From the IMG/VR virus record IMGVR_UViG_3300034150_000068, positions 1-30,677 of that record: DNA of 30,677 nt. One strand, written 5' to 3'. The notes beneath the pieces are model-generated. The model saw only the letters and a program-made list of their open reading frames with translations. It was not told the origin of the DNA and searched no databases. A program made the position numbers and the translations under genes. The stretch is from a virus (lineage: Duplodnaviria; Caudoviricetes). Within the stretch, counting starts at the first letter, position 1. Each line of letters starts with the position of its first letter. This document shows, piece by piece, positions 1,035 to 16,949 of this stretch.

Positions 1035-1721
1035 ATGAGCAACTTTTCTCGAACCGCCTTCCCCAACGGAGGTTGGCAATACTACCACAGCCAAAGCAAA
1101 TGGAGTGCGCCCAATCCCAAAGGCAACACGTTCGATCAGCAAGTAAACGAGATCATTAAGCATCGCCGTCTAAACCCCGCGATGTTGATCCAGCACAAGC
1201 TCTCAATCGATCCGGTTATCGTGGGCAACGAGCTCGAGGCGTATAACCGTGCGCGCCTGGGTATCCCGGCAATCCTGCCAGCGGCGCGCCATGATGTTCC
1301 TCCTCCGGAAAGCTCGCCGCTCCTTTCGGTACCGGTAAGGGACGCGATCTCCGCCGTGAAGAAGATTGCGGCCGGAGCTGCGCTCCTCATGGAATGGGAA
1401 GAGAGCGGATTGCCTCCGGAGCCTGCGGCCGTCTCTGAAGCCAGGGCAGTAATCTGCGCTACCTGCCCAAAAAATGAGAAAGGCAAAAGCCTCACTGAGA
1501 TTTTCACCGTGCCGGCATCAAACCGGATTTTGGACAAACTCAAACGCTTGCATGATCTGAATCTGAAAACCTCGAAGGACGCAGATCTCGCTGTCTGCCA
1601 AGCGTGCCTCTGCCCCCTCAAACTCAAAGTTCATACGCCAATGAGCTTGATCCAAAAACGGACCAAGCCGGAGCAACGCGCTGAGCTCCATCCCCAATGC
1701 TGGATCCTGGCCGCTCCGTGA
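1035..1721 (+). CDS. Hypothetical protein with a C-terminal Cys-rich, likely Zn-binding domain
   Basis: N-terminal domain is duplicated in 723..1028. C-terminus has the pattern CATCPKN...CQACLCPLKLKV...CW. Confidence 0.8.
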   Translation: MSNFSRTAFPNGGWQYYHSQSKWSAPNPKGNTFDQQVNEIIKHRRLNPAMLIQHKLSIDPVIVGNELEAYNRARLGIPAILPAARHDVPPPESSPLLSVPVRDAISAVKKIAAGAALLMEWEESGLPPEPAAVSEARAVICATCPKNEKGKSLTEIFTVPASNRILDKLKRLHDLNLKTSKDADLAVCQACLCPLKLKVHTPMSLIQKRTKPEQRAELHPQCWILAAP

Positions 1722-2422
1722 TCCATGTTGTTTATATCGCGGTTTCGGGCGGGCCCTTGACCCATGAATACTGCGCTCGCTTCGTTGGTAGTTACCTTGC
1801 CAATCCTCCCGGCGCGACTAACCGCGTAATTGTCGTCTGCAACGGCGGCGCGCTCCCGATCGAGACTCAGATGCTCTTTCTCCCGCTCAACGCCACCTTT
1901 CTATTGAGGGCTAACGATCCCTCCTGGGATATCGGCGGGTATATGGACGCGGCGAGCCAGTTTCAGGGGAAGTTTCTCTTTTGCTGCGGAGAGACGGTTT
2001 ATTTTCATCGCGAGGGATGGCTTGCCAGGATGGCTGATGCTTGGGAGAAATACGGAAACGGCATGTATGGCTCTTTCTCGAGCAACCTTGTCCGAACGCA
2101 CTTAAACACCACGGCTTTCGCCTGCGATGCAGCTTCACTCCTGAGCTACCCACGTCCAATGAACCGCGGCCAGCGCTACAATTTCGAGCACGGCTCAGAC
2201 TCGCTTTGGCGGCGGCTACACCAGCACGGCAAGCCGGTCAAGCTGGTGACGTGGAACGGGTGCTGGGATCCGGTCCATTGGCGTCTCCCGATGGATATCC
2301 TTTGGCGCGGGGATCAGACTAACTGCCTGAGCTTCTGTTCGCATACCGATCGCTATCGAGCGTCCGCGCCAAAAATTAAACGCCAGTGGGCAGCCTGGGC
2401 CGATGGTCCTTACCGCTTATGA
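1718..2422 (+). CDS. Glycosyltransferase-like protein (GT-A-like), paralog of 2419..3102
   Basis: GTGA overlap start. N-terminal beta strand IHVVYIAV; motifs NDPSWDIGGY, GWLARMADA, HLNTTAF and FEHG are shared with the next gene. Confidence 0.6.
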   Translation: MIHVVYIAVSGGPLTHEYCARFVGSYLANPPGATNRVIVVCNGGALPIETQMLFLPLNATFLLRANDPSWDIGGYMDAASQFQGKFLFCCGETVYFHREGWLARMADAWEKYGNGMYGSFSSNLVRTHLNTTAFACDAASLLSYPRPMNRGQRYNFEHGSDSLWRRLHQHGKPVKLVTWNGCWDPVHWRLPMDILWRGDQTNCLSFCSHTDRYRASAPKIKRQWAAWADGPYRL

Positions 2423-3102
2423 GAATCGCAGTTGTTTACATATTCCCTGTTTTCGAAGGCGCGTTTTTTGATAACGCGTGCCGATTCATCGCCACGTACA
2501 ACGAGAATCCGCCAGGGATGGAGCATCAGCTTATTTTTGTCTCCAATGGCGGCAAGCCAACGCTCGAAATGCGTGCCTTGGCGGAGTCCTGCAACCATCC
2601 GGTAGAATGGTTTGAGCACGACAACTCAGGCTATGACATGGGAGGCTTTCAAGCGGCCGCTCGCTCTATCCCTTGCGAGATGATGCTCTTCCTTGGGAGC
2701 AGCGCGTATCTACGCCGTCCGCAATGGCTCTCGCGGATGGCTGAGGCTTTCGTGAAGCACGGCAATGCCGCGATCTACGGCAGTACCGCCAACTGCGGCG
2801 ATGCCCGGGTAAATGTGTTCCCGCATATCCGGACCACAGGCTTTTGGATGGCGCCGATGATCATGAACATGTATCCGTTCAAAGTATCGCGGCCTGAGCA
2901 TCGATATCCGGCTGAGCACGGTGCCAACTGCCTTACAGAGTGGGCGAAGGCCCAAGGGTACCCCGCATTCATGGTCACCTGGGATGCTGAGGCGGAATGG
3001 CCAAATTGGGACTCGGTACCGGAATCGTTTCACCAAGGCCACCAAAACGGATTATTAGTTGGGGATCGTTTAACTTCTCCCCCTTACTACCCTTATCCAT
3101 GA
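2419..3102 (+). CDS. Glycosyltransferase-like protein (GT-A-like)
   Basis: ATGA overlap start. Motifs DNSGYDMGGF (N.G.D.G as in RgpF/rhamnan-synthesis-like GTs), WLSRMAEA, HIRTTGF, AEHG. Confidence 0.6.
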   Translation: MRIAVVYIFPVFEGAFFDNACRFIATYNENPPGMEHQLIFVSNGGKPTLEMRALAESCNHPVEWFEHDNSGYDMGGFQAAARSIPCEMMLFLGSSAYLRRPQWLSRMAEAFVKHGNAAIYGSTANCGDARVNVFPHIRTTGFWMAPMIMNMYPFKVSRPEHRYPAEHGANCLTEWAKAQGYPAFMVTWDAEAEWPNWDSVPESFHQGHQNGLLVGDRLTSPPYYPYP

Positions 3103-3785
3103 AAATTGCAATTTTTTACCATACCCTTTTCTACCTGGGCAGCCCTCCGGACCTGAGGCCGATGGCTGTCGATATCGTGAGCGAGCAGATTACGCAGATG
3201 GAAAAAGCGGGACTCATTTGTGCGGCCGGCGAAATGATCGTAGGCGTCAACGGCGGCGAGGAGAGCGAGGACATTGCTCGAGTGCTCTTGCCACCCAAAG
3301 CCAAGTTGGTTTTTCACGGCCTGCAATCGCGTGCGGAGAATCCAACGATCGTTCTGCTCGAGAATTGGGCTAAGACTCATCCCGGCTGGGCGATCCTTTA
3401 CCTGCACAGTAAAGGCGCGAGCCATGAGCACGGGAGTCCCTACGGCCAGAACGTCTCTGGTCCCTGGCGCCATGCCATGATGGCTGATCTTGTCGACAAC
3501 TGGCGCGCCTGCGTAGCCGACCTGTCAGCCGGCGCCGAAATGGTTTGCTCACACTTCATGAGGAACATGGCAGACGGGTCACAGCATATCCCTGCCGGTA
3601 ATTTTCTGTGGACTACTTCAAACTTTGTTCGCACTCTGCCGTCCATATTCATGCGTGAACGGATCAAAGTCTCCGGTATTGCCGCACTCGAGAGCCGATA
3701 TGAGGCAGAGGTGTACTGGGGCAACGGTCCAAGGTTGCCCATGGTGAAGGAGTGGCGCCCCACTGGCGGGGGCGGCTGTCCGTAA
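3099..3785 (+). CDS. Glycosyltransferase-like protein
   Basis: ATGA overlap start. Motifs ILYLHSKG, W.HAM, GNFLW and R..AE.YWG resemble the YLHTKG / GNFWW family of phage GT-like proteins. Confidence 0.6.
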   Translation: MKIAIFYHTLFYLGSPPDLRPMAVDIVSEQITQMEKAGLICAAGEMIVGVNGGEESEDIARVLLPPKAKLVFHGLQSRAENPTIVLLENWAKTHPGWAILYLHSKGASHEHGSPYGQNVSGPWRHAMMADLVDNWRACVADLSAGAEMVCSHFMRNMADGSQHIPAGNFLWTTSNFVRTLPSIFMRERIKVSGIAALESRYEAEVYWGNGPRLPMVKEWRPTGGGGCP

Positions 3786-4879
3786 TGAGTCCGGAGCTTG
3801 AGGCGGAATACGCGGACGCGGCGCGCCCTTTCTACGAGGGCGGTGGCGCCATCACGGAGGAAGTTACCAAACTAAAAGGCTGGCGTTTCTTTTTAGAGAT
3901 CAATTCAGTCTGCAATCTCCGTTGCCCGACGTGCACCAAGGGCAATCAGGCTGCCGTCGACGGTTTGAAGTATGACCACCAAACCGGCATCATGGATGAG
4001 TCTCTGATGGAGCGAATCCTAGACAAAATCCAATCCGAAAACCCTAAGGCATTGATCTTCCTTTACGGCAATTCTGAGGGTTTCATTCATCCCCGTTTGC
4101 CCGAGTGCATCGCCTCAGTAAAGCGCCGCGGGCTGTCTCCTCAGTTATCCAGTAACCTTAACTATATTCAGCGTGTACCTGAGACGTTGGAAGCTGGGCC
4201 GGACCTGATAATCATCAGCCTCTCGGGCTGGACTCAGGAAGTTTACGAGAAAGGGCACGTTGGCGGTAACATCGAAAAGGTTAAGGCCAACATGCGGATT
4301 CTGGCGGAAGCCAACAACCAGCGCCCCGCCGAAAAACGGATCGATATCAGAGTCAATTTCCATGTTTACATGGATAACACTCACGAGATTGAGCCGATGA
4401 AGGAGTACGCCACTAACTTGGGGCTTGGCTTCTTCACGTCGCTCGCTCGGGCCATTTCAATGGAAAGCACGATTCAGTACGAGCGCCACTTGGACCCCGA
4501 TGCCACGCCATTCGAGATACAAGAAGGGCAACCAGATTGGAACCAGCTTCTACCTCCGGTGTCTCAGACTTATATCGACAGCATGAAGCGTCTTAAAATC
4601 CAGCCAACTCAGGCGCGGGAGATGTACCAGCATTATCCAGTTCGAGAGGCTTGCCCTGTTGGCGCAGGAATGCTTTTCACTTTTATTAGGCATGACGGAT
4701 TAGTGCAGATGTGCGCATGCACAGCGGATCGGAGGATTACGCTCGGAAACTATTTGGATCTGACTCCAGACCAAATGATCGAGAAAAGGCACGGACATTC
4801 GATTTGCAAGCAGTGCCTAAAATACCGGAATAACCTTTACTACAATCTCGTTGATCGAGACAAATGGGAATCGCCATGA
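3785..4879 (+). CDS. Radical SAM protein with SPASM/twitch-like C-terminal domain
   Basis: CNLRCPTC (CxxxCxxC) motif. C-terminal CPV...IRHDGLVQMCACT...LGN...CKQC. Confidence 0.92.
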   Translation: MSPELEAEYADAARPFYEGGGAITEEVTKLKGWRFFLEINSVCNLRCPTCTKGNQAAVDGLKYDHQTGIMDESLMERILDKIQSENPKALIFLYGNSEGFIHPRLPECIASVKRRGLSPQLSSNLNYIQRVPETLEAGPDLIIISLSGWTQEVYEKGHVGGNIEKVKANMRILAEANNQRPAEKRIDIRVNFHVYMDNTHEIEPMKEYATNLGLGFFTSLARAISMESTIQYERHLDPDATPFEIQEGQPDWNQLLPPVSQTYIDSMKRLKIQPTQAREMYQHYPVREACPVGAGMLFTFIRHDGLVQMCACTADRRITLGNYLDLTPDQMIEKRHGHSICKQCLKYRNNLYYNLVDRDKWESP

Positions 4880-5070
4880 AAGACTTGACCGGAGAAGTAT
4901 TCGGAAAACTGACAGTGATTGCGCTACACGGAACCCGTCCATACCCAGGCGGAGGGGACGGCGTAACAATGGCCGCAAAGCAATGGGCGAATAAATCGGG
5001 CATCCCGTACACCACCCTGCTACATCGCTTAAATCAGGGATGGCTAGACGAAAGGGCGGTTCAGCCTTGA
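4876..5070 (+). pseudogene. Internally deleted HNH homing-endonuclease remnant (ORF still open, 64 aa)
   Basis: N-terminal MKDLTGEVFGKLTVI and C-terminal QWANKSGIPYTTLLHRLNQGW match the two ends of phage HNH homing endonucleases. No HNH core lies between them. Confidence 0.7.
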
Positions 5071-5693
5071 AAACCCTTGATGAGACTGGGATCGAGAACG
5101 GCACAGACAAAGCCAGCGTTTTTACAAGGACCTACGCCAAGCCTCATGATTACCTGAGGCACATGGAGCGGTTCTTTGCGACTCTCAAGGACAAGCCGAT
5201 CAAACTTGTTGAGATTGGAGTCGGCGGCGGAGAGTCGATCCGCACTTGGCTCGATTACTTCGCTTTCGCCTGGGTCCTTGGAATAGACAACGTGCACGAT
5301 ACAAACAGGTGGAACACTCCAAAAAAGTGGAATACCTGCGACGCGGAGTCGGACGGTTACGATCGATACGCTTTCATGGCCGCGGATCAAACCGATCCAA
5401 CTTTTTGGGCGTGCTTTGCGGCGGACGTTGGGCGAGCTGTCGATATCGCCATCGACGATGGCTCCCATGAACCTAAGGGGGTGCAAATGTCCTTTGCTGG
5501 CTTGTGGCCGCTCATTAAGCCAGGGGGATTTTACGTGATCGAGGATTTAGGCTGTGGCTTTACCACCCCGGGCCTCCCCACACACTGGGAATTTATGGCG
5601 GCTTACCTCGCTCCGCTCATGATTGGCGGGCTTGAAGATCTCGATTCGATTTACATTGCCCGCGAATTGGCAATAATCCGAAAGAAAGGCTAA
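5067..5693 (+). CDS. Class I SAM-dependent methyltransferase (sugar O-methyltransferase-like)
   Basis: Motifs LVEIGVGGGES, IAIDDGSH, LIKPGGFYVIEDL. TTG start at 5067 overlaps the previous stop. Confidence 0.9.
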   Translation: MKTLDETGIENGTDKASVFTRTYAKPHDYLRHMERFFATLKDKPIKLVEIGVGGGESIRTWLDYFAFAWVLGIDNVHDTNRWNTPKKWNTCDAESDGYDRYAFMAADQTDPTFWACFAADVGRAVDIAIDDGSHEPKGVQMSFAGLWPLIKPGGFYVIEDLGCGFTTPGLPTHWEFMAAYLAPLMIGGLEDLDSIYIARELAIIRKKG

Positions 5694-5695
5694 CC

Positions 5696-7003
5696 GTGTA
5701 CACCATTCACAACCGCTGCCGTGCCTGCAACTTTGGCCCTCCCATTCTCCCCGGCGGAACAAAAGCGGGAGCCAACTCCGATCGCCTGCTCCCTGCGTTC
5801 AGCCTGGGGGTTCAGCCGCTCGCTAACGATTTCTGCGCAGACGGCGAGGAGCGAGCCGGTTTTGCGCCGCTCGAGATTCTCCTCTGCCCTCAATGCGGTT
5901 TGGCGCAGTTGAGCGTAGTTGTTGACCCTGGGATCCTTTACGCCAAAGATTATCCCTACGTAACCAGCAAGAGTGACACCATGCGGCAACATTTTGAGCT
6001 TCTCTGGAAGGATTGTAGCTCGCTGGCCACTTCGAAAACTGTCATCGAGGTTGGCAGCAACGATGGGGATTTCCTCAATTACTGCCGGCAGCACGGCGCA
6101 GAAGCTGTGATCGGTATCGAGCCGGCTGCCAATCTGGCGACGGCGGCCGAAAAGCAGGGCATCCGGACGATCCGCGATTTCTTCAACCCCGCCTCAGCCG
6201 CGATGGCTAGCCAAGCCATGCCCAAAGTGGGGATGATCTTTGCCCGTCACGTCTTTTGCCACGTACCGGACTGGCAAGCCTTCATGGCTAACCTGCAACT
6301 CTTGGCTGGGCCCGAGACTCTGATTTGTATCGAGGTGCCTTACGTGATGGATCAACTCAAGGCGATCAGCTTTGACCAGATTTACCATGAGCATTGCAGC
6401 TATCTCTCCATCCGTGCGATCAAAGCCCTGCTCAACGGCGGCCCGTTCTGTCTCAAAGATCTCAAGCATTACATGATTCACGGCGGCGCGATTCTGCTCA
6501 TGATTCAGCGCCGTAGCCCTGAGGTAAAGGCCAGTCAAACGGTCCTCGAGTACCTCGACGCGGAGAACGCGACGTATGAAAGCTGGCAGGAGTTTGCCAT
6601 GAAGAGCACGGACGCGATCGAGAAACTCAAAGGCTTGATCAAGCAGCTTCGGAGGGATGGTAAAAGGGTTGTGGGTTTCGGCGCCTCCGCCAAAAGCACG
6701 GTATGGATCAACGCGATGGGGCTAACTCGCGCTGATCTGTCCTGCGTCTACGATTGCACTCCTTCAAAGTGGTATCGGTACATTCCAGGCACGGATATCC
6801 CGATCGTTAACCAGGGCGGGTTTTACGTCGACGATCCGGAGTATGCAGTGCTTTTCAGTTGGAACTACGAGATCGAAATTATGGACAAGAACCGGAAATG
6901 GATGGAAGGCGGTGGGTCGTTCATTGTCCCCATTCCGGAGGCGAAAATCTATCGCGCTGAGACGTCTTTCAAGCCTTACGATGCGCCAGTTGCTGCCGGT
7001 TAA
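5696..7003 (+). CDS. NDP-hexose C3-methyltransferase family (C-methyltransferase)
   Basis: N-terminal Zn site CRAC...CPQCGLAQL, then LGVQPLANDF, VIEVGSNDG, FDQIYHEH, IHGG, GFGASAKS, YIPGTDIPI and SWNY. Confidence 0.93.
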   Translation: MYTIHNRCRACNFGPPILPGGTKAGANSDRLLPAFSLGVQPLANDFCADGEERAGFAPLEILLCPQCGLAQLSVVVDPGILYAKDYPYVTSKSDTMRQHFELLWKDCSSLATSKTVIEVGSNDGDFLNYCRQHGAEAVIGIEPAANLATAAEKQGIRTIRDFFNPASAAMASQAMPKVGMIFARHVFCHVPDWQAFMANLQLLAGPETLICIEVPYVMDQLKAISFDQIYHEHCSYLSIRAIKALLNGGPFCLKDLKHYMIHGGAILLMIQRRSPEVKASQTVLEYLDAENATYESWQEFAMKSTDAIEKLKGLIKQLRRDGKRVVGFGASAKSTVWINAMGLTRADLSCVYDCTPSKWYRYIPGTDIPIVNQGGFYVDDPEYAVLFSWNYEIEIMDKNRKWMEGGGSFIVPIPEAKIYRAETSFKPYDAPVAAG

Positions 7004-11228: not shown

Positions 11229-12575
11229 ATGGCTGTAAACGCTCCCGCGGCTCCGGCCGCTCCCGCTAAAGCTGTAGTCGCTCCCAAAGCGGCTCCAGCG
11301 CCCAAGCCTGCAGCGGCCGCTCCTGCCCCTGCAACTCCAGTTAAACCCGCTCCCAAGCCAGCGCCTAAGCCGGATGCGCCAGGGCGACCGGTAATTCAGC
11401 AAAAGCACGAAGCGGATACCGAGTGGCTTAATACCGTTGGCAAAGAGCTTGAGGACTTGGATGCAGTCGGCAAAGTGGTCCGCCCTGCGCCAAAGCCCAA
11501 GGATAAGCCCAAGCCGGACGCTTCGGACGCTTCGGACGCACCCGACGAAACCGATCCGACCCAAACAGAGACAGCTCCGGCCGCTCCGGATCTAGTCGAT
11601 CCAAAACCTGCCGATGAGCCGGACCTGCGCACCAATGCCGGCTTACGCAAAGCTTTCGATCGCGCTCAACTCCGTATCAAAGACGATCTCGAACCCGAAC
11701 TCACCAAGGCACGCACGCGCATTAAAGAGCTCGAGAGCCGGGAGCCGGAAGAGGTAACGCCGCTCCGAGAAAAGCTCACCGCGATCGAGAAGCGCAATCA
11801 GGCGCTCGAGCAGGAGATTGAGTACGTCAACTTTTCATCGAGCGAGAAATTTCAAAAGGATTACGCTGAGCCCTACCTCAAAGCCTGGAATAAAGCCCTT
11901 AATGACGTCCAGCAGTTGCAGGTTGAAACCGAAAACGGCGAGATGCGTCCAGCCAATGAAGACGATCTGCTCTACATTTCGAGGCTTAATCTAGGCGAGG
12001 CGATCAAGCAGGCCGATGCCATGTTTGGCCGCGGCGCCACGACAATCCTCCGGCATCGCGAGCTCATTCGGGAACTGGCGGAGGCGCAGGATTCCGCACT
12101 CAGGACTGCCAAAGAGAAAGCCTCCGAACGTATCAAGGAACAGCAGACGCAATCACAACAGCAATCGGAGAAAATGCGAAAGCTGTGGGCACAGACAAAC
12201 CAAGCGCTAACCGAGAAGTACAAAAACTGGTTTGCGCCTGAGGAAGGGGATGCAGATGGCAACGATCTGCTCACCAAAGGCCGGCAACTGGCCGATCGGA
12301 TGTTCTCCCCAACGGAAGAGACGCGCCCTAAAACGCCGGAGGAGGCAGTCAGATTGCACGCGCTCATTTACAACAAAGCGGCCAATCACGATCGCCTCGC
12401 GCTCCGGCTCAAGAAAGCCAGCGCTCGAGTTAAAGAACTCGAGGAGTCCTTAAAGCAATACGAGGACAGCGAGCCGCACGGCGGGCGCCCTGGTTCTGGC
12501 CGCGCTGCAGGCGCTCCTGGCATCGGCGATTACGAGTCGGAAATTGACGCGCTCTCCGCCAAAGGTCCGCGGTGA
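11229..12575 (+). CDS. Capsid scaffolding protein (putative)
   Basis: P/A/K-rich then acidic disordered N-terminus, long E/K/Q coiled coils, position between portal and capsid. Confidence 0.7.
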   Translation: MAVNAPAAPAAPAKAVVAPKAAPAPKPAAAAPAPATPVKPAPKPAPKPDAPGRPVIQQKHEADTEWLNTVGKELEDLDAVGKVVRPAPKPKDKPKPDASDASDAPDETDPTQTETAPAAPDLVDPKPADEPDLRTNAGLRKAFDRAQLRIKDDLEPELTKARTRIKELESREPEEVTPLREKLTAIEKRNQALEQEIEYVNFSSSEKFQKDYAEPYLKAWNKALNDVQQLQVETENGEMRPANEDDLLYISRLNLGEAIKQADAMFGRGATTILRHRELIRELAEAQDSALRTAKEKASERIKEQQTQSQQQSEKMRKLWAQTNQALTEKYKNWFAPEEGDADGNDLLTKGRQLADRMFSPTEETRPKTPEEAVRLHALIYNKAANHDRLALRLKKASARVKELEESLKQYEDSEPHGGRPGSGRAAGAPGIGDYESEIDALSAKGPR

Positions 12576-12808
12576 AATACAAAAACCTCTCAGCCGCGCA
12601 GCTTGCCAAGCTGATTAAACGCCGCCCCATGAAAGACGGCAGCGCCGCTCATGTTTGGGCGGAGCGCATCGAATCTGAGAAACAGCGTTGCGCGCTGCCA
12701 AAGAAAACTCAGCGAAAACTAGGCCTACTCCCTCCCGTCAATGGAAACTCAAAGAACCATCCGGCCGCTCCGCGGTCAGTGCCTGTTACTCCTGTTGCCT
12801 CGCATTAA
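12572..12808 (+). CDS. Small basic hypothetical protein
   Basis: GTGA overlap with the scaffold stop. The 3' end overlaps groES by 68 nt. Confidence 0.5.
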   Translation: MKYKNLSAAQLAKLIKRRPMKDGSAAHVWAERIESEKQRCALPKKTQRKLGLLPPVNGNSKNHPAAPRSVPVTPVASH

Positions 12809-13067
12809 AGAAACTCAATCTGGCATTGCGTTACCCGATATTTCCTTCGATAGAGCCAAAGGGGAAAAAGAGCGGCCAGCGACGGCGAGAGTTATCAGTG
12901 TCGGACCATGGAAAAAGGCGAAAAACGGTCTTAGCCTCTTGCCGGAAATTAAGCCAGGGGATGAAGTCTTGATCGGCTTCTACTCAGGACAAAAACTTGA
13001 TTTCGACGTTAGCGGGAAATTGCGACTGGTTAAAACTGATGAAGTGTTGGCGATAGTCCAGAATTGA
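12741..13067 (+). CDS. groES: GroES/Cpn10-like co-chaperonin
   Basis: IRPLRGQCLL...KETQSGIALPD...ARVISVGP...IKPGDEVL...YSG...LVKTDEVLAIV reproduces the GroES pattern, including the mobile loop. Confidence 0.92.
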   Translation: METQRTIRPLRGQCLLLLLPRIKETQSGIALPDISFDRAKGEKERPATARVISVGPWKKAKNGLSLLPEIKPGDEVLIGFYSGQKLDFDVSGKLRLVKTDEVLAIVQN

Positions 13068-13305
13068 TCTGAACTACCGCTAACCTCTGGCACTGCGCAC
13101 CCATCCGTAGACTACCTTTGGCAACCATAGGCTGCCCCGCTCAGCCAAACCGATCCCTTCCATACCATTCCCGATCGGACAAAACCTACACCGGACACAG
13201 CCTGACCGGAACACAGCCCACCATACCAAACCATATCGCACCAGAGCCGAACCCGCCTAACCCTTCCACTCAACTGTCGACGCTACCTTAGCAAACCTTG
13301 CCATG

Positions 13306-13326
13306 CCGGCCTTACGGCCCGTTCCA
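13306..13326 (-). repeat. 21-bp direct repeat with GGCC-GUAA-GGCC hairpin (distal copy)
   Basis: CCGGCCTTACGGCCCGTTCCA is identical to 13472-13492. The minus strand reads TGGAACG-GGCC-GTAA-GGCC-GG. Confidence 0.95.
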
Positions 13327-13471
13327 TACCCGAGAGAACCAAGGCTCAGACCACCGCGCCTCAGCGCACCCCGACCCGATCTCAGCAAGCCTCAATCCGC
13401 ACCCGTCATTACCATACCCGAGCTAACCCGACACTGGAGAGCCGAACCGTGACAAACCGCACCATACCGAA

Positions 13472-13492
13472 CCGGCCTTACGGCCCGTTCCA
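13472..13492 (-). repeat. 21-bp direct repeat with GGCC-GUAA-GGCC hairpin (proximal copy)
   Basis: Identical to 13306-13326, with a period of 166 nt. Confidence 0.95.
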
Positions 13493-13624
13493 CTCCGTGC
13501 CAAACCTTGCCTCACACAAGCTCACCACTGCCGACCATACCTTGCCTAATCTCGCCTCACCTATCACAACCAGACCGTGACCTACCTCGCACAGCCTGCC
13601 CCCTGATCGCCGCACCGAAATAGA

Positions 13625-14257
13625 TCAGTCATCAAGTAGATCAAACTTGATCACGTTGAACCGTCCAAAGCTGGGGCGAAAATCAGCCATTCCGATAATC
13701 CTCCCGCCTTGCTGGATGAGCGCGTTAAGCTTCTGAGGTGCCAAGTACTCAGGCAGGTTCACCATTAAAATAAATCCCGCCTTCCATCCTGGCTTAAGCG
13801 CCGGTCTGGTTCGAGTGATCGCGTTCCTCTGGATCACAACCCTGCGCATATCCAAATAATCCGGCTCGGCCAAACCTGTGTCTGCGAGCTCCGTTAGGCT
13901 CACAAGCGCCGCCTTCATGAGATCCATCATGGACTTGCGAGGCGAGCGGGGATCCTGCTCGTACTTCGCTGCGTGGATCACGGTTTGCCTGAGGTACTCG
14001 CCAGGAATACAGATGTGCCCCTTTTCATTTCTCCAGAGGAAACTCTCGATATCATCGGTTTTCTTCTCCGCGCTGCCTTTTTTGGCTTTAGCTTTTGCGG
14101 CAACAGACTCGTTATTCCAACGATGGAAGAGCAGAGGGCACGTGCCTTCAATTTCGACCAAAACCCGATAGGGCTTTTGCAGTGACAGGATTTCCTCTGC
14201 TCCGTTAGTTGGGGACTCTCCGCCAATTTCCGTGATCTTTTGTGGTGATTTACTCAT
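13625..14257 (-). CDS. Stand-alone RAMP/Cas7-like RNA-binding protein
   Basis: First strand VLVEIEGTCPLLFH; ICIPGEYLRQTV (cf. the RAMP motif IPGSSLKG.L); thumb-like RRVVIQRNAITRTRP; C-terminal Gly-rich loop GGRIIGMADFRPSFGRFNV. Only convincing minus-strand gene in the window. Confidence 0.75.
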   Translation of the reverse strand: MSKSPQKITEIGGESPTNGAEEILSLQKPYRVLVEIEGTCPLLFHRWNNESVAAKAKAKKGSAEKKTDDIESFLWRNEKGHICIPGEYLRQTVIHAAKYEQDPRSPRKSMMDLMKAALVSLTELADTGLAEPDYLDMRRVVIQRNAITRTRPALKPGWKAGFILMVNLPEYLAPQKLNALIQQGGRIIGMADFRPSFGRFNVIKFDLLDD

Positions 14258-14455
14258 TGAACCTTACCGCACCTTAAGTGCAAAGCACCTGCTCACTGTG
14301 TTGTACCGCAGCGCTGGGAGCGCTGCCGACAGCAAACAGGTGCCAAATTTTGAGGTTTCTTTCATCCGGGTACAATCGGATTACGGACGCATGTTTATAT
14401 CCCCACAAACAGAACTGCAAGAAAAATAGCTCTTGACCCCCTCTGAGCTTCGAGA

Positions 14456-14724
14456 GTATTGCTACCCGCGATCAGTGAATTGCGCGGGCCCATATAGCGC
14501 ACGATCGAAGCAGGGGAGATAAAGAGCGGCCGTGCGAAGCGATCGTGATCGCTGTTGGCCCGTGGAAAAAGGCCAAAAATGGTTTTGCCATCCTCCCTGA
14601 TTTCCCTCCTGGCGCCAAAGTTTTGGTGTCCTTCTACGCCGGCACCAAGCTCACCCACTCGATCGGGGAGCGGCTCCGGCTCTGCTCCGTTAGTGACGTC
14701 CTGGCAGTAGTTGAAGAAAAATGA
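14456..14724 (+). pseudogene. groES: Decayed second groES copy (no start codon, probable frameshift near 14490)
   Basis: 14491-14724 translates HIAHDRSRGDKERPCEAIVIAVGPWKKAKNGFAILPDFPPGAKVLVSFYAGTKLTHSIGERLRLCSVSDVLAVVEEK*, which aligns to the 3' two-thirds of 12741..13067. In-frame TGA at 14476. VLLPAISE in another frame (14456-14479) resembles LLLPRIKE of the intact copy. Confidence 0.88.
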
Positions 14725-15209
14725 GCATTGAAACAAAGCACGCGTACCGTTTCGGATATCTTAAATCCGAACAGTGGCAAACCGTAAGGATCGCAGCGCT
14801 GGCGAGGGAAAAGGCAAAGTGCCAAATCTGCGGCCATGAGTCTGTTTTCAACGATGCTCATCACGTCTGGTACCCGCCGAATATATGGAGGACTACTGAA
14901 AAGCATCTTATTGTCCTCTGCCGGGAGTGCCACGACTTTATTCATATTGTCCGGCCGGAGTGCAAAACCAGAAATGAGAAGCAGGGGCTTCAAGAGTGGC
15001 AGGCGTTCAAATTGGCCGTAATTGCGTGGCGATATTCAAAGGGTCAGGTTTTCGAAAAAGCTGAAGGGCTGGGAGGCACCCGAAACATGAGGGAGGCGAT
15101 CGAGATGTACCGAAAGCGCTGCTCAGATCAGGAAAAGGAGATCGAAATCCTAAAGGCAGCGCTCTCAGAATATCGAATTTCTGTTGACACCAAGATTTTG
15201 AGGAGTTAA
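14721..15209 (+). CDS. HNH endonuclease family protein
   Basis: YLKSEQWQTVR..ALAR...CQICG...DAHHVWY...LIVLCRECHDFIH. ATGA-coupled to the stop of the groES remnant. Confidence 0.9.
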   Translation: MSIETKHAYRFGYLKSEQWQTVRIAALAREKAKCQICGHESVFNDAHHVWYPPNIWRTTEKHLIVLCRECHDFIHIVRPECKTRNEKQGLQEWQAFKLAVIAWRYSKGQVFEKAEGLGGTRNMREAIEMYRKRCSDQEKEIEILKAALSEYRISVDTKILRS

Positions 15210-15212
15210 AAG
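15184..15212 (+). promoter_or_regulatory. Putative sigma70-type promoter for the capsid gene
   Basis: TTGACA(15184)-17 nt-TAAAAG(15207), ahead of a 190-nt structured intergenic region. Confidence 0.5.
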
Positions 15213-15398
15213 CCAGCCAAGCACCGGGGCTCTAGGTGCATAAAAAAGTGATGCCAGGATCGACCGATCCAAGTCCGGCGCGACTCAGGACTCTAAAAAC
15301 GCAGCCGCTAAGCTCCCACCGGGAGTCACCCGCCTGATAGGACGGAGAGTTAAGCAAACGTCCGTTAACCTTTAACGTCCGATCAAAATTTTAGTTTT

Positions 15399-16949
15399 AT
15401 GGCACTCAGTTGCAAACAGTTCACGGATTACCTGAGCCGGAAGTCCGAACACCTTGACGATAATATCATTCTTTCCATGCACCCGATCGACACTTGGATT
15501 GGGCATGTTTCAATCGGCCGGTTTGCCGCGGAAGATGGCGTCGAACACACTTTCGATCGTTTCGAGAATGTCTTTCCTGATCTGCGCGGAGCCTGGGAGG
15601 ACGTCACTGCCGCAAGCTGCGTAGGCCAGCCCTGCGATCCCTCGAGCACCAAGATCGGCTTGGGTTTCACCCGGGACAGCTACAAGCTGCAGCGCAAATC
15701 ATACGAAACCGATCTGTTCTGTTTCGATCAGATCCTTTCGGCCGATCGCGCCAAGCAGCAGTTTGCGCACGTCATTCGAGTGAACCGGCGCGCCTCCTCG
15801 CTGATCACCTCGCATCGGTTCCGGACTGAAGCCATTCGGATCGCCAAATACAAATGGGCGACGGCAAACAACACGCTGGTACCGATTACTGCGACCTGGG
15901 ACACCACGATGACGTTCCTTACGATCTCAACGCTGCCGACCAGCAAGATCACCGCTCGCCACCTGCAGCGGCGCGTCCAGCCACAGATCCGCGAGGGCGC
16001 CCTCTCTGAGGACATCAATCGCTCCGTGCAACCCATGCTCGAGTTTGTAACGGACATGGATGAAGTCTGGAACATGGTTGAGGGCAACCCTGAGCTCACT
16101 GACCATTGGCGCTTTACCGACTTTGTTGACGCGGAGAAGTACCATAAGTACGGCTGGGTCGGGAAGCTGGGCAATTACGGCTTGCGAGCCGATTGGACTT
16201 CGCTCCGGTTCAACCTCTACGCGCAGAACGCGGACGGCAGCGCCGTGCTGCAGATCGTTTATCCGTATACCAACGTGGCGGCGACTGAGGGCATTAAAGA
16301 AGTGGTCAATAGCGACTACGATAACGCCTACATACAGGCGGATTTCATCTGGCACCGCAAGGCGATGACTTCGATGGTTCGCGATACCACCGCGATTAAT
16401 CCGGAGATGCCTTTCGCGATGCGCGACTTTGCCGGCAAGTGGCAATTCGTGATGGATAACCTCACTTGCGGCACGGACGTAAACGGAAACCCCATCGCCG
16501 TTGACAACGCCCGACGCAACAAGGGTAAATTCATCGCTGACTGGTCCTTTGCGACTCAGGCGGAATACCCCGAACTGGCGGAAGTGTTCTTCCACCTGCG
16601 CGAGCCTGCTTGCGTTGTGGACGTGCCGAACTGCGCCAGCAACCCGGGCTATCCGGCTCAGAGCTACTCGAGCGCCAACGCTCCGTGCCCTTCGAGCAAT
16701 ACCACGCTCACGTTTACCCCGGCTTTGAGCGGCTCTGGTGACTACGACATTCCGCAGGACTCGATCCTGTGTAACGGGTTGAACATCTTCAATCCGCGCA
16801 TTAGCGGCGTCACAACTCTTGCAACCCTGGTTGCTTCGCTGAATACGAATCTCTCAGCGATGGGCACCTGGGCCGTTGCCACCGCGACCACGATCACCCT
16901 CACCGGCGCGGTTTGTACCAGCGTGAACATCCCCTGGACGATCGACTAA
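15399..16949 (+). CDS. Major capsid protein with S/T-rich C-terminal extension
   Basis: 516 aa, downstream of scaffold and groES, preceded by its own putative promoter and leader, followed by strong hairpins. Identification rests mostly on synteny. Confidence 0.75.
   Translation: MALSCKQFTDYLSRKSEHLDDNIILSMHPIDTWIGHVSIGRFAAEDGVEHTFDRFENVFPDLRGAWEDVTAASCVGQPCDPSSTKIGLGFTRDSYKLQRKSYETDLFCFDQILSADRAKQQFAHVIRVNRRASSLITSHRFRTEAIRIAKYKWATANNTLVPITATWDTTMTFLTISTLPTSKITARHLQRRVQPQIREGALSEDINRSVQPMLEFVTDMDEVWNMVEGNPELTDHWRFTDFVDAEKYHKYGWVGKLGNYGLRADWTSLRFNLYAQNADGSAVLQIVYPYTNVAATEGIKEVVNSDYDNAYIQADFIWHRKAMTSMVRDTTAINPEMPFAMRDFAGKWQFVMDNLTCGTDVNGNPIAVDNARRNKGKFIADWSFATQAEYPELAEVFFHLREPACVVDVPNCASNPGYPAQSYSSANAPCPSSNTTLTFTPALSGSGDYDIPQDSILCNGLNIFNPRISGVTTLATLVASLNTNLSAMGTWAVATATTITLTGAVCTSVNIPWTID

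Follow-up and report, generated by a model that had tools for sequence, protein, structure and literature searches.

The question raised by this locus was whether a block of 16 pentamers in a viral genome encodes a guide RNA and, if so, what kind of gene the guide is aimed at. The window, meaning the whole stretch of DNA that was analysed, is a virus record of 30,677 bases with a major-capsid-like gene at 15399-16949. A preliminary description of the window had listed 16 pentamers at 13396-13475, and exactly those 16 are present. It had proposed that their variable dinucleotides specify a gapped target, with two bases read and one skipped, and that this target encodes an excisionase/HTH-like motif.

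The Vipr gene and its surroundings

The gene beside the pentamers (13625..14257, minus strand) encodes P0001, a Cas7-like RAMP protein of 210 aa. It was identified as vipr from phrog_4652, a match to SUSP1 Vipr (36PP) and a fold model. When P0001 was searched against PDB sequences up to E 10, SUSP1 Vipr was the one match (E 1.8e-4). A profile of 54 sequences matched SUSP1 Vipr at E 1.6e-11, and the other 4/5 rows had E values of 0.24 or worse. Homologues of P0001 numbered 3,873 among 4,216 candidates. The P0001 model (pLDDT 83.6) had Csm3, Cmr and Cas7 as its top folds (Z 11.5, rmsd 4.2, 159 residues aligned); SUSP1 Vipr was absent from the fold-search matches because of the date of the library (to April 2026).

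P0001 is a RAMP homologue with an RRM core, a thumb and a G-loop. R151, D192 and F193 are invariant in the 54 sequences. In the alignment, SUSP1 R138 corresponds to R151 and SUSP1 D177-W178-R179 to D192-F193-R194, and these positions are invariant or nearly so. In the available part of the structural report, the same SUSP1 residues contact the GGY bases (10.64898/2026.04.26.720927). Tracts of 9-16 GGY/NN units adjoin the gene, where GGY is the scaffold triplet and NN the variable dinucleotide. The locus at 13087-14257 is a VIPR locus, composed of a Vipr gene and an array.

No cas family was found among the 29 ORFs scanned, and no spacer-repeat array was found at 12500-14800. As for a vap gene, no co-oriented neighbour of vipr had a family match; a nearby HNH gene is on the opposite strand. 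In a search for the host, the capsid protein was absent from 201+201 genomes of two phyla.

Several other features of the genome were recorded. A second groES-like copy, truncated at its N terminus (14479-14715) and sharing 52% identity with the groES gene at 12741-13067, is followed by the HNH endonuclease gene (14721-15209). The VIPR module is therefore flanked by two groES-like copies. Both lie in a stretch of approximately 755 bases (14461-15216) that is missing from the sister phage L001. A stem-loop lies just upstream of vipr (14280-14345, minus strand) and also occurs in the related loci L002 (~4335-4403) and L003 (~4820-4890). Two-sided changes were seen in 6/23 predicted pairs across the three sequences. 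The stem-loop at 14280-14345 had no Rfam match, and is possibly a leader RNA. Ahead of the head genes, 1697-7003 contains a radical SAM gene, two methyltransferase genes and three unassigned enzyme-like genes, possibly a cluster for sugar or surface modification. In GenBank phage DSL-LC04, a Vipr homologue with 53% identity (OR003939.1:22435-23046) is named as a helix-turn-helix transcriptional regulator.

Array layout and the sister phage

The array begins 8 bases past the vipr stop and runs on the minus strand from 13616 down to ~13087. It opens with 25 in-phase units (13492..13616) that form the first guide tract or tracts. These units are ended by an 18-nt element consisting of a 4-bp GC hairpin and a tetraloop (copy 1, 13474..13491), a predicted tail or separator whose folding is not significant alone (z -1.67). 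The 16-unit tract follows at 13394..13473, with 10/16 exact GGY triplets, and is a predicted vrRNA guide. The hairpin precedes this tract, and none lies directly after it. Past a phase shift comes a tract of 4+9 units (13326..13391), homologous to one in the first unit of L001. It is succeeded by copy 2 of the 18-nt hairpin element (13308..13325, z -0.12), by 24 in-phase units in one or more tracts (13188..13307) and, after a 1-nt phase shift, by a last guide tract of 20 units with 8 exact GGY (13087..13186).

A stable hairpin at approximately 13050..13086 closes the array on the minus strand and overlaps the end of the convergent groES gene. When 13040-13110 was folded, z was -4.27 and 0/200 shuffles were as stable. 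This hairpin is a possible 3' end of the array; the terminator scan made no call there. The promoter and terminator scan gave none on the minus strand. Rfam returned only two weak eukaryotic matches, far under the cut-offs, and no hammerhead. Tandem Repeats Finder did not detect the array, and among the sediment and soil runs listed with this phage (X1-X12) there was no RNA run.

The density of exact GGY triplets distinguishes the region from the rest of the window. The best real 16-unit frame has 11, and frames outside 13000-13700 have at most 5. The maximum was 7 in 100 Markov shuffles of the whole window and 9 in 2,000 shuffles of the array region.

The block at 13473-13394 is almost certainly one VIPR guide RNA. 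The proposal of a guide with a 1-nt-skip code was borne out, as the neighbouring gene is a Vipr gene and the rule is published for VIPR. The limits of the block needed a small correction. The last GG (13474-13475) belongs to the 3' arm of the 18-nt hairpin, and the final G residue of the proposed peptide drops out, while the rest of the decoding arithmetic was right. The AA that the preliminary description placed before the block (13394-13395) is the 16th NN and adds [KN] as suggested.

Fifteen related viral loci were found, and 42 in-phase tracts were called in them. L001 encodes an identical Vipr protein, and its flanks are ~81-82% alike; the Vipr proteins of the relatives L002 and L003 are 74-77% identical. 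Hairpins resembling the 18-nt element occur at the same place in all three. Short GC hairpins were also seen in the downstream arrays of L002 (~5231) and L003 (~5830), and may be a clade-specific separator.

The 16-unit tract was compared with its copy at L001:5791. Over the first 14 units, 1/28 NN bases and 3/42 scaffold bases have changed, and units 15 and 16 differ. In a 17-unit tract (13272-13188, minus strand), the last of the 24 in-phase units, 34/34 NN bases are kept in L001 despite 5/51 scaffold changes. A third tract has 2/36 NN and 2/54 scaffold changes. The first 12-13 units of the first tract (13492..13616) are common to L001 with their NN changed, 6/24 NN bases being different. 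From these alignments, in which the counts are small, the pattern suggests that NN bases are under selection. The tract at 13272-13188 is likely a second working guide.

The order of the tracts also differs. L001:5700-5792 matches 13393-13306 at 86%, and one tract is placed differently in the two arrays. The window array (13616-13087) has two hairpin elements and extra tracts, while L001:5642-6075 has one hairpin element. A contig from run X7 has the L001 layout, and a contig from run X4 covers 13370-13526 with zero differences from the window. Some tracts are thus kept, some altered and some relocated between the window and L001, and the guides therefore behave as modules, an observation relevant to how vrRNAs come to be acquired.

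Such a tract might also be a decayed or stale guide that has no current target, or part of an array that is silent. That 6/16 of the scaffold triplets are not GGY, and that no target was found, would fit such decay. The conservation in L001 argues otherwise: the NN bases are kept while the scaffold changes (1/28 against 3/42 in one tract and 0/34 against 5/51 in the other, small counts), vipr is intact, and the L001 protein is identical. Degenerate scaffolds have, moreover, been described for vrRNAs (10.64898/2026.04.26.720920). We regard a stale guide or a silent array as improbable.

Decoding of the guide and searches for its target

The 16 NN decode to [KN]-A-R-[FL]-[IM]-R-[Y*]-R-L-[DE]-[DE]-V-[KN]-A-[IM]-[DE], in which the TA position may be a stop. 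The opposite pairing of the same block decodes to S-[IM]-A-[FL]-T-S-S... Because any dinucleotide string decodes to some peptide, resemblance to a protein family needed a test. A search profile was built from six HTH proteins that the seed had found, using their N-terminal 39-42 residues and leaving the motif out. It matches 8,852 proteins. From 150 listed, 90 that were single-domain and ended at the last profile position were taken. Of these, one was too short, one was a near copy of the metagenome locus L199 and two lacked the tyrosine anchor, leaving 86. The consensus of their next residues is G-R-V-R-Y-R-L-E-D-V-E-A-Y-E.

On this HTH_17 wing-helix profile the decoded block scored 19.0 bits. 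That score was reached by 5/100,000 order shuffles, counting both pairings and all offsets, a figure that holds for one family, picked after the fact. The L001 copy scored 15.6 bits, 41 other natural tracts scored at most 5.2, and the five other window tracts scored -6.7 to -13.2. With the window codon background the block reached 21.6 bits. Real members have a median of 26.5, and 31% of them score lower than the block; across 298,622 six-frame windows of phage DNA no score exceeded 11.3.

All of this score came from the eight seed columns, which contributed 22.1 bits, and the six others sum to -0.6. Outside the seed, A (+7) and E/D (+9) fit, and [FL] at -3, [KN] at +6 and [IM] at +8 are rare in the 86 members. 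Since it was the seed that led to this family, only the non-seed columns test the fit independently, and they are neutral. The excisionase/HTH motif noticed earlier therefore holds in one respect: the string agrees with the consensus of the C-terminal wing-helix in an HTH_17 subfamily (Pfam HTH_17, PF12728; TIGR01764), whose V-R-Y-R-L-E-D-V-E-A-Y-E accommodates the decoded [IM]-R-Y-R-L-[DE]-[DE]-V as well as A at +7 and E/D at +9. It gains no net support from the non-seed positions. HTH_17 includes regulators that are not excisionases, and a target is not an excisionase by membership alone. Reading the target as an excisionase is plausible but unproven.

Gapped sites were then sought. In the window the best 1-gap site matched 19/32 and none came within 3 mismatches, in agreement with the earlier remark that no such gene was seen in the window; the guide has no self target. 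The 0-gap and 3-gap models were applied to the window. The viral, metagenome and GTDB collections were scanned with exact seeds. The 30-base regular expression of the preliminary description had 0 exact matches in viral contigs and, with 3 mismatches allowed, 0 in the window. Neither metagenomes nor GTDB contained a match to a 22-base core. No HTH_17 gene turned up in the fragmentary records of L001-L003.

The central 16-base 1-gap seed was found at 36 viral loci in 13 groups. Five of the 13 groups (7/36 loci) are HTH_17-like, each with the match on the coding strand and in frame. Pfam was scanned for 14 loci from 12 groups; 6/14 matched HTH_17 at E≤0.01, three of them exceeding the cut-off; L016, closely related to two of the six, is the seventh HTH_17-like locus. 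The seed group of L017 was considered as an HTH gene and was ruled out even with TAG read through. The other 29/36 loci, in 8/13 groups, are not HTH. The best full match among the HTH_17-like viral loci was 24/32, a value that two non-HTH loci also reached.

With 2-base gaps the central seed gave three viral loci, and one order-shuffled seed gave ten, of which 0/7 scanned had a Pfam family. The excess of 1-gap hits that had been put forward as a check was thus seen for the seed (36 against 3 and 10), and the full-length pattern went unmatched. The contrast between 2-gap and 1-gap seeds is expected of any coding-like string, because codon periodicity is lost when two bases are skipped.

In metagenomes a shifted seed gave 48 loci, 45/48 of them not HTH-looking. 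The top match (L219 and L203, the same site) agreed at 26/32 and lies in frame in a 67-aa HTH_17 gene (E 3.7e-10; under the cut-off against TIGR01764). The gene beside it is one that we take to be RecT-like. When 40 residues of the L219 protein were used to search for homologues, one match was obtained. A second metagenome locus, L199, agreed at 24/32 and is also HTH_17. With a 3' seed, the best match among 120 of ~160 loci was again 26/32, at L291 in a closed frame, and no HTH-looking gene was found among those 120.

The GTDB 18-base seed gave 13 loci, the best at 24/32 and none HTH-looking. A 24-base pattern with 3 mismatches was run on 396 genomes in each of four phyla, and 5, 1, 0 and 1 genomes matched; the reversed-pattern control gave one match. 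The 7/1,584 genomes matched at 23-24/32 overall. In five, the match lies in a single host gene family, Tex, and none of the matches in the 1,584 genomes was HTH-looking. A seed from the tract at 13272-13188 gave 18 loci with a best match of 23/34 and no target; 2/18 fall on the same conserved enzyme-like motif, presumably that of thymidylate synthase. No site in these searches rose above the chance ceiling, since the best (26/32, 81%), in an HTH_17 gene, was equalled by the closed-frame L291. A target was in this sense not demonstrated.

With a 5' seed, no HTH-looking locus was found among 120 of ~140, and the best match was 23/32. Two of the 120 loci, L140 and L096, are distant vipr genes matched in frame at the thumb strand, which corresponds to the opening half of the decoded string. 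The guide might then be aimed at the vipr gene of a rival, and vrRNAs that target vipr are described in the accessible text of one report (10.64898/2026.10.15.759431). The two sites match at just 18/32 and 17/32, and the match stops at a conserved Vipr proline. The L001 copy differs in precisely that half and keeps the other. A vipr target is on these grounds highly improbable.

A weightier possibility, although still an unlikely one, is that a working guide addresses another gene or site of an unsampled rival, the HTH look being an eight-residue coincidence. The net -0.6 bits of the non-seed columns agree with coincidence, as do the 8/13 viral groups, 45/48 metagenome loci and 13/13 GTDB loci that are not HTH-looking. 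The same core also fits a GH3-family stretch (L189), and the seed of the control tract at 13272-13188 likewise met a family motif. On the other side, no family except the HTH_17-like genes was reached by five unrelated viral groups. Such a gene also gives the top metagenome match, and the core is the consensus of the HTH_17 family and not a rare variant. We consider an HTH_17-type gene the probable target because of these 5/13 seed groups and because published VIPR targets appear biased towards regulators and excision genes.

Comparison with published VIPR systems

In the published systems, vrRNAs have 9-16 units and skip one base, mostly on the wobble position, and their targets lie on both strands, require no PAM, are silenced, and include satellites and prophage lysis-lysogeny regulators (10.64898/2026.04.26.720920). 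According to the VIPR papers, one Vipr per unit holds GGY in a filament on the RNA, the NN bases pair with the target in antiparallel orientation and pass over each third base of it, and repression occurs without cutting (10.64898/2026.04.26.720920; 10.64898/2026.04.26.720927). The accessible text of a later report describes a guide that acts on the excision recombinase of a satellite and thereby immobilises it, and makes the argument about wobble escape (10.64898/2026.10.15.759431). The alignment to wobble positions and the role against rival elements, both proposed in the preliminary description, agree with these accounts (10.64898/2026.04.26.720920; 10.64898/2026.10.15.759431, as far as available). 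The read-2-skip-1 code, the wobble alignment and the anti-rival role are the published VIPR mechanism and are not new.

Applied to the window, this mechanism would run as follows. The array would be transcribed with vipr, and its transcript may be cut at the hairpin and the phase shift. The 16-unit guide would load into a Vipr filament and direct it to a gapped DNA site, where it would pair with the coding strand and the skipped base would fall on codon position 3. The site would be the wing-helix coding stretch of an HTH_17 gene in a rival phage, prophage or satellite. Blocked transcription would silence this small HTH gene and leave the rival without a factor for excision or early regulation. 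We favour this account, a VIPR guide aimed at the wing-helix coding stretch of a rival's HTH_17 (excisionase-like) gene and blocking its transcription, as the probable one. In its broadest form, the guide would silence the excisionase-family HTH gene of co-resident prophages or satellites through the family's most conserved codons, lock a broad range of rivals in the chromosome, and pass as a swappable module between sister phages. We put that broad form at even chances.

The feature is real, the VIPR system is known and the window locus is a further example of it, with a plausible prediction of the target family. If the target reading is correct, the targets of VIPR would come to include a small excisionase-family gene, for a Vipr clade distant from SUSP1. 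The target family of a guide could then be guessed from its dinucleotides read as codons, even where the target genome is unsampled. The word excisionase is absent from the accessible text of 10.64898/2026.10.15.759431 and from the supplement PDF of 10.64898/2026.04.26.720920, and none of the VIPR texts searched names excisionase-family HTH genes as a target class; the Data S3 target tables may hold such targets. In the literature from 2026, no paper was found that pairs vipr with an excisionase. The available part of one catalogue counts 99 VIPR-like array clusters (10.64898/2026.10.21.760802).

The window locus resembles VIPR of SUSP1 (36PP) in its phage-borne, stand-alone RAMP of ~200 aa with thumb and G-loop residues, and in its co-oriented GGY/NN pentamer array with a 16-unit tract and no self target. 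The phase shifts between window tracts resemble the 'staggered' VIPR arrays. P0001 is distant from SUSP1 Vipr by pairwise comparison (E 1.8e-4), and no vap gene was recognised in the window operon. Its predicted separator is an 18-nt hairpin element, whereas that of VIPR is a pseudoknot tail of ~40 nt, and its scaffold, with 10/16 GGY, is more degenerate than in known VIPR. A close parallel to the guide is SUSP1 vrRNA4, which acts against the excision recombinase of the F5 satellite (10.64898/2026.10.15.759431). The vrRNA4 target is a recombinase and was tested, while that of the window guide is a predicted small HTH_17 DNA-binding gene for which no site was found. Both guides skip wobble positions, and the window guide is likewise predicted to stop a rival at excision or regulation.
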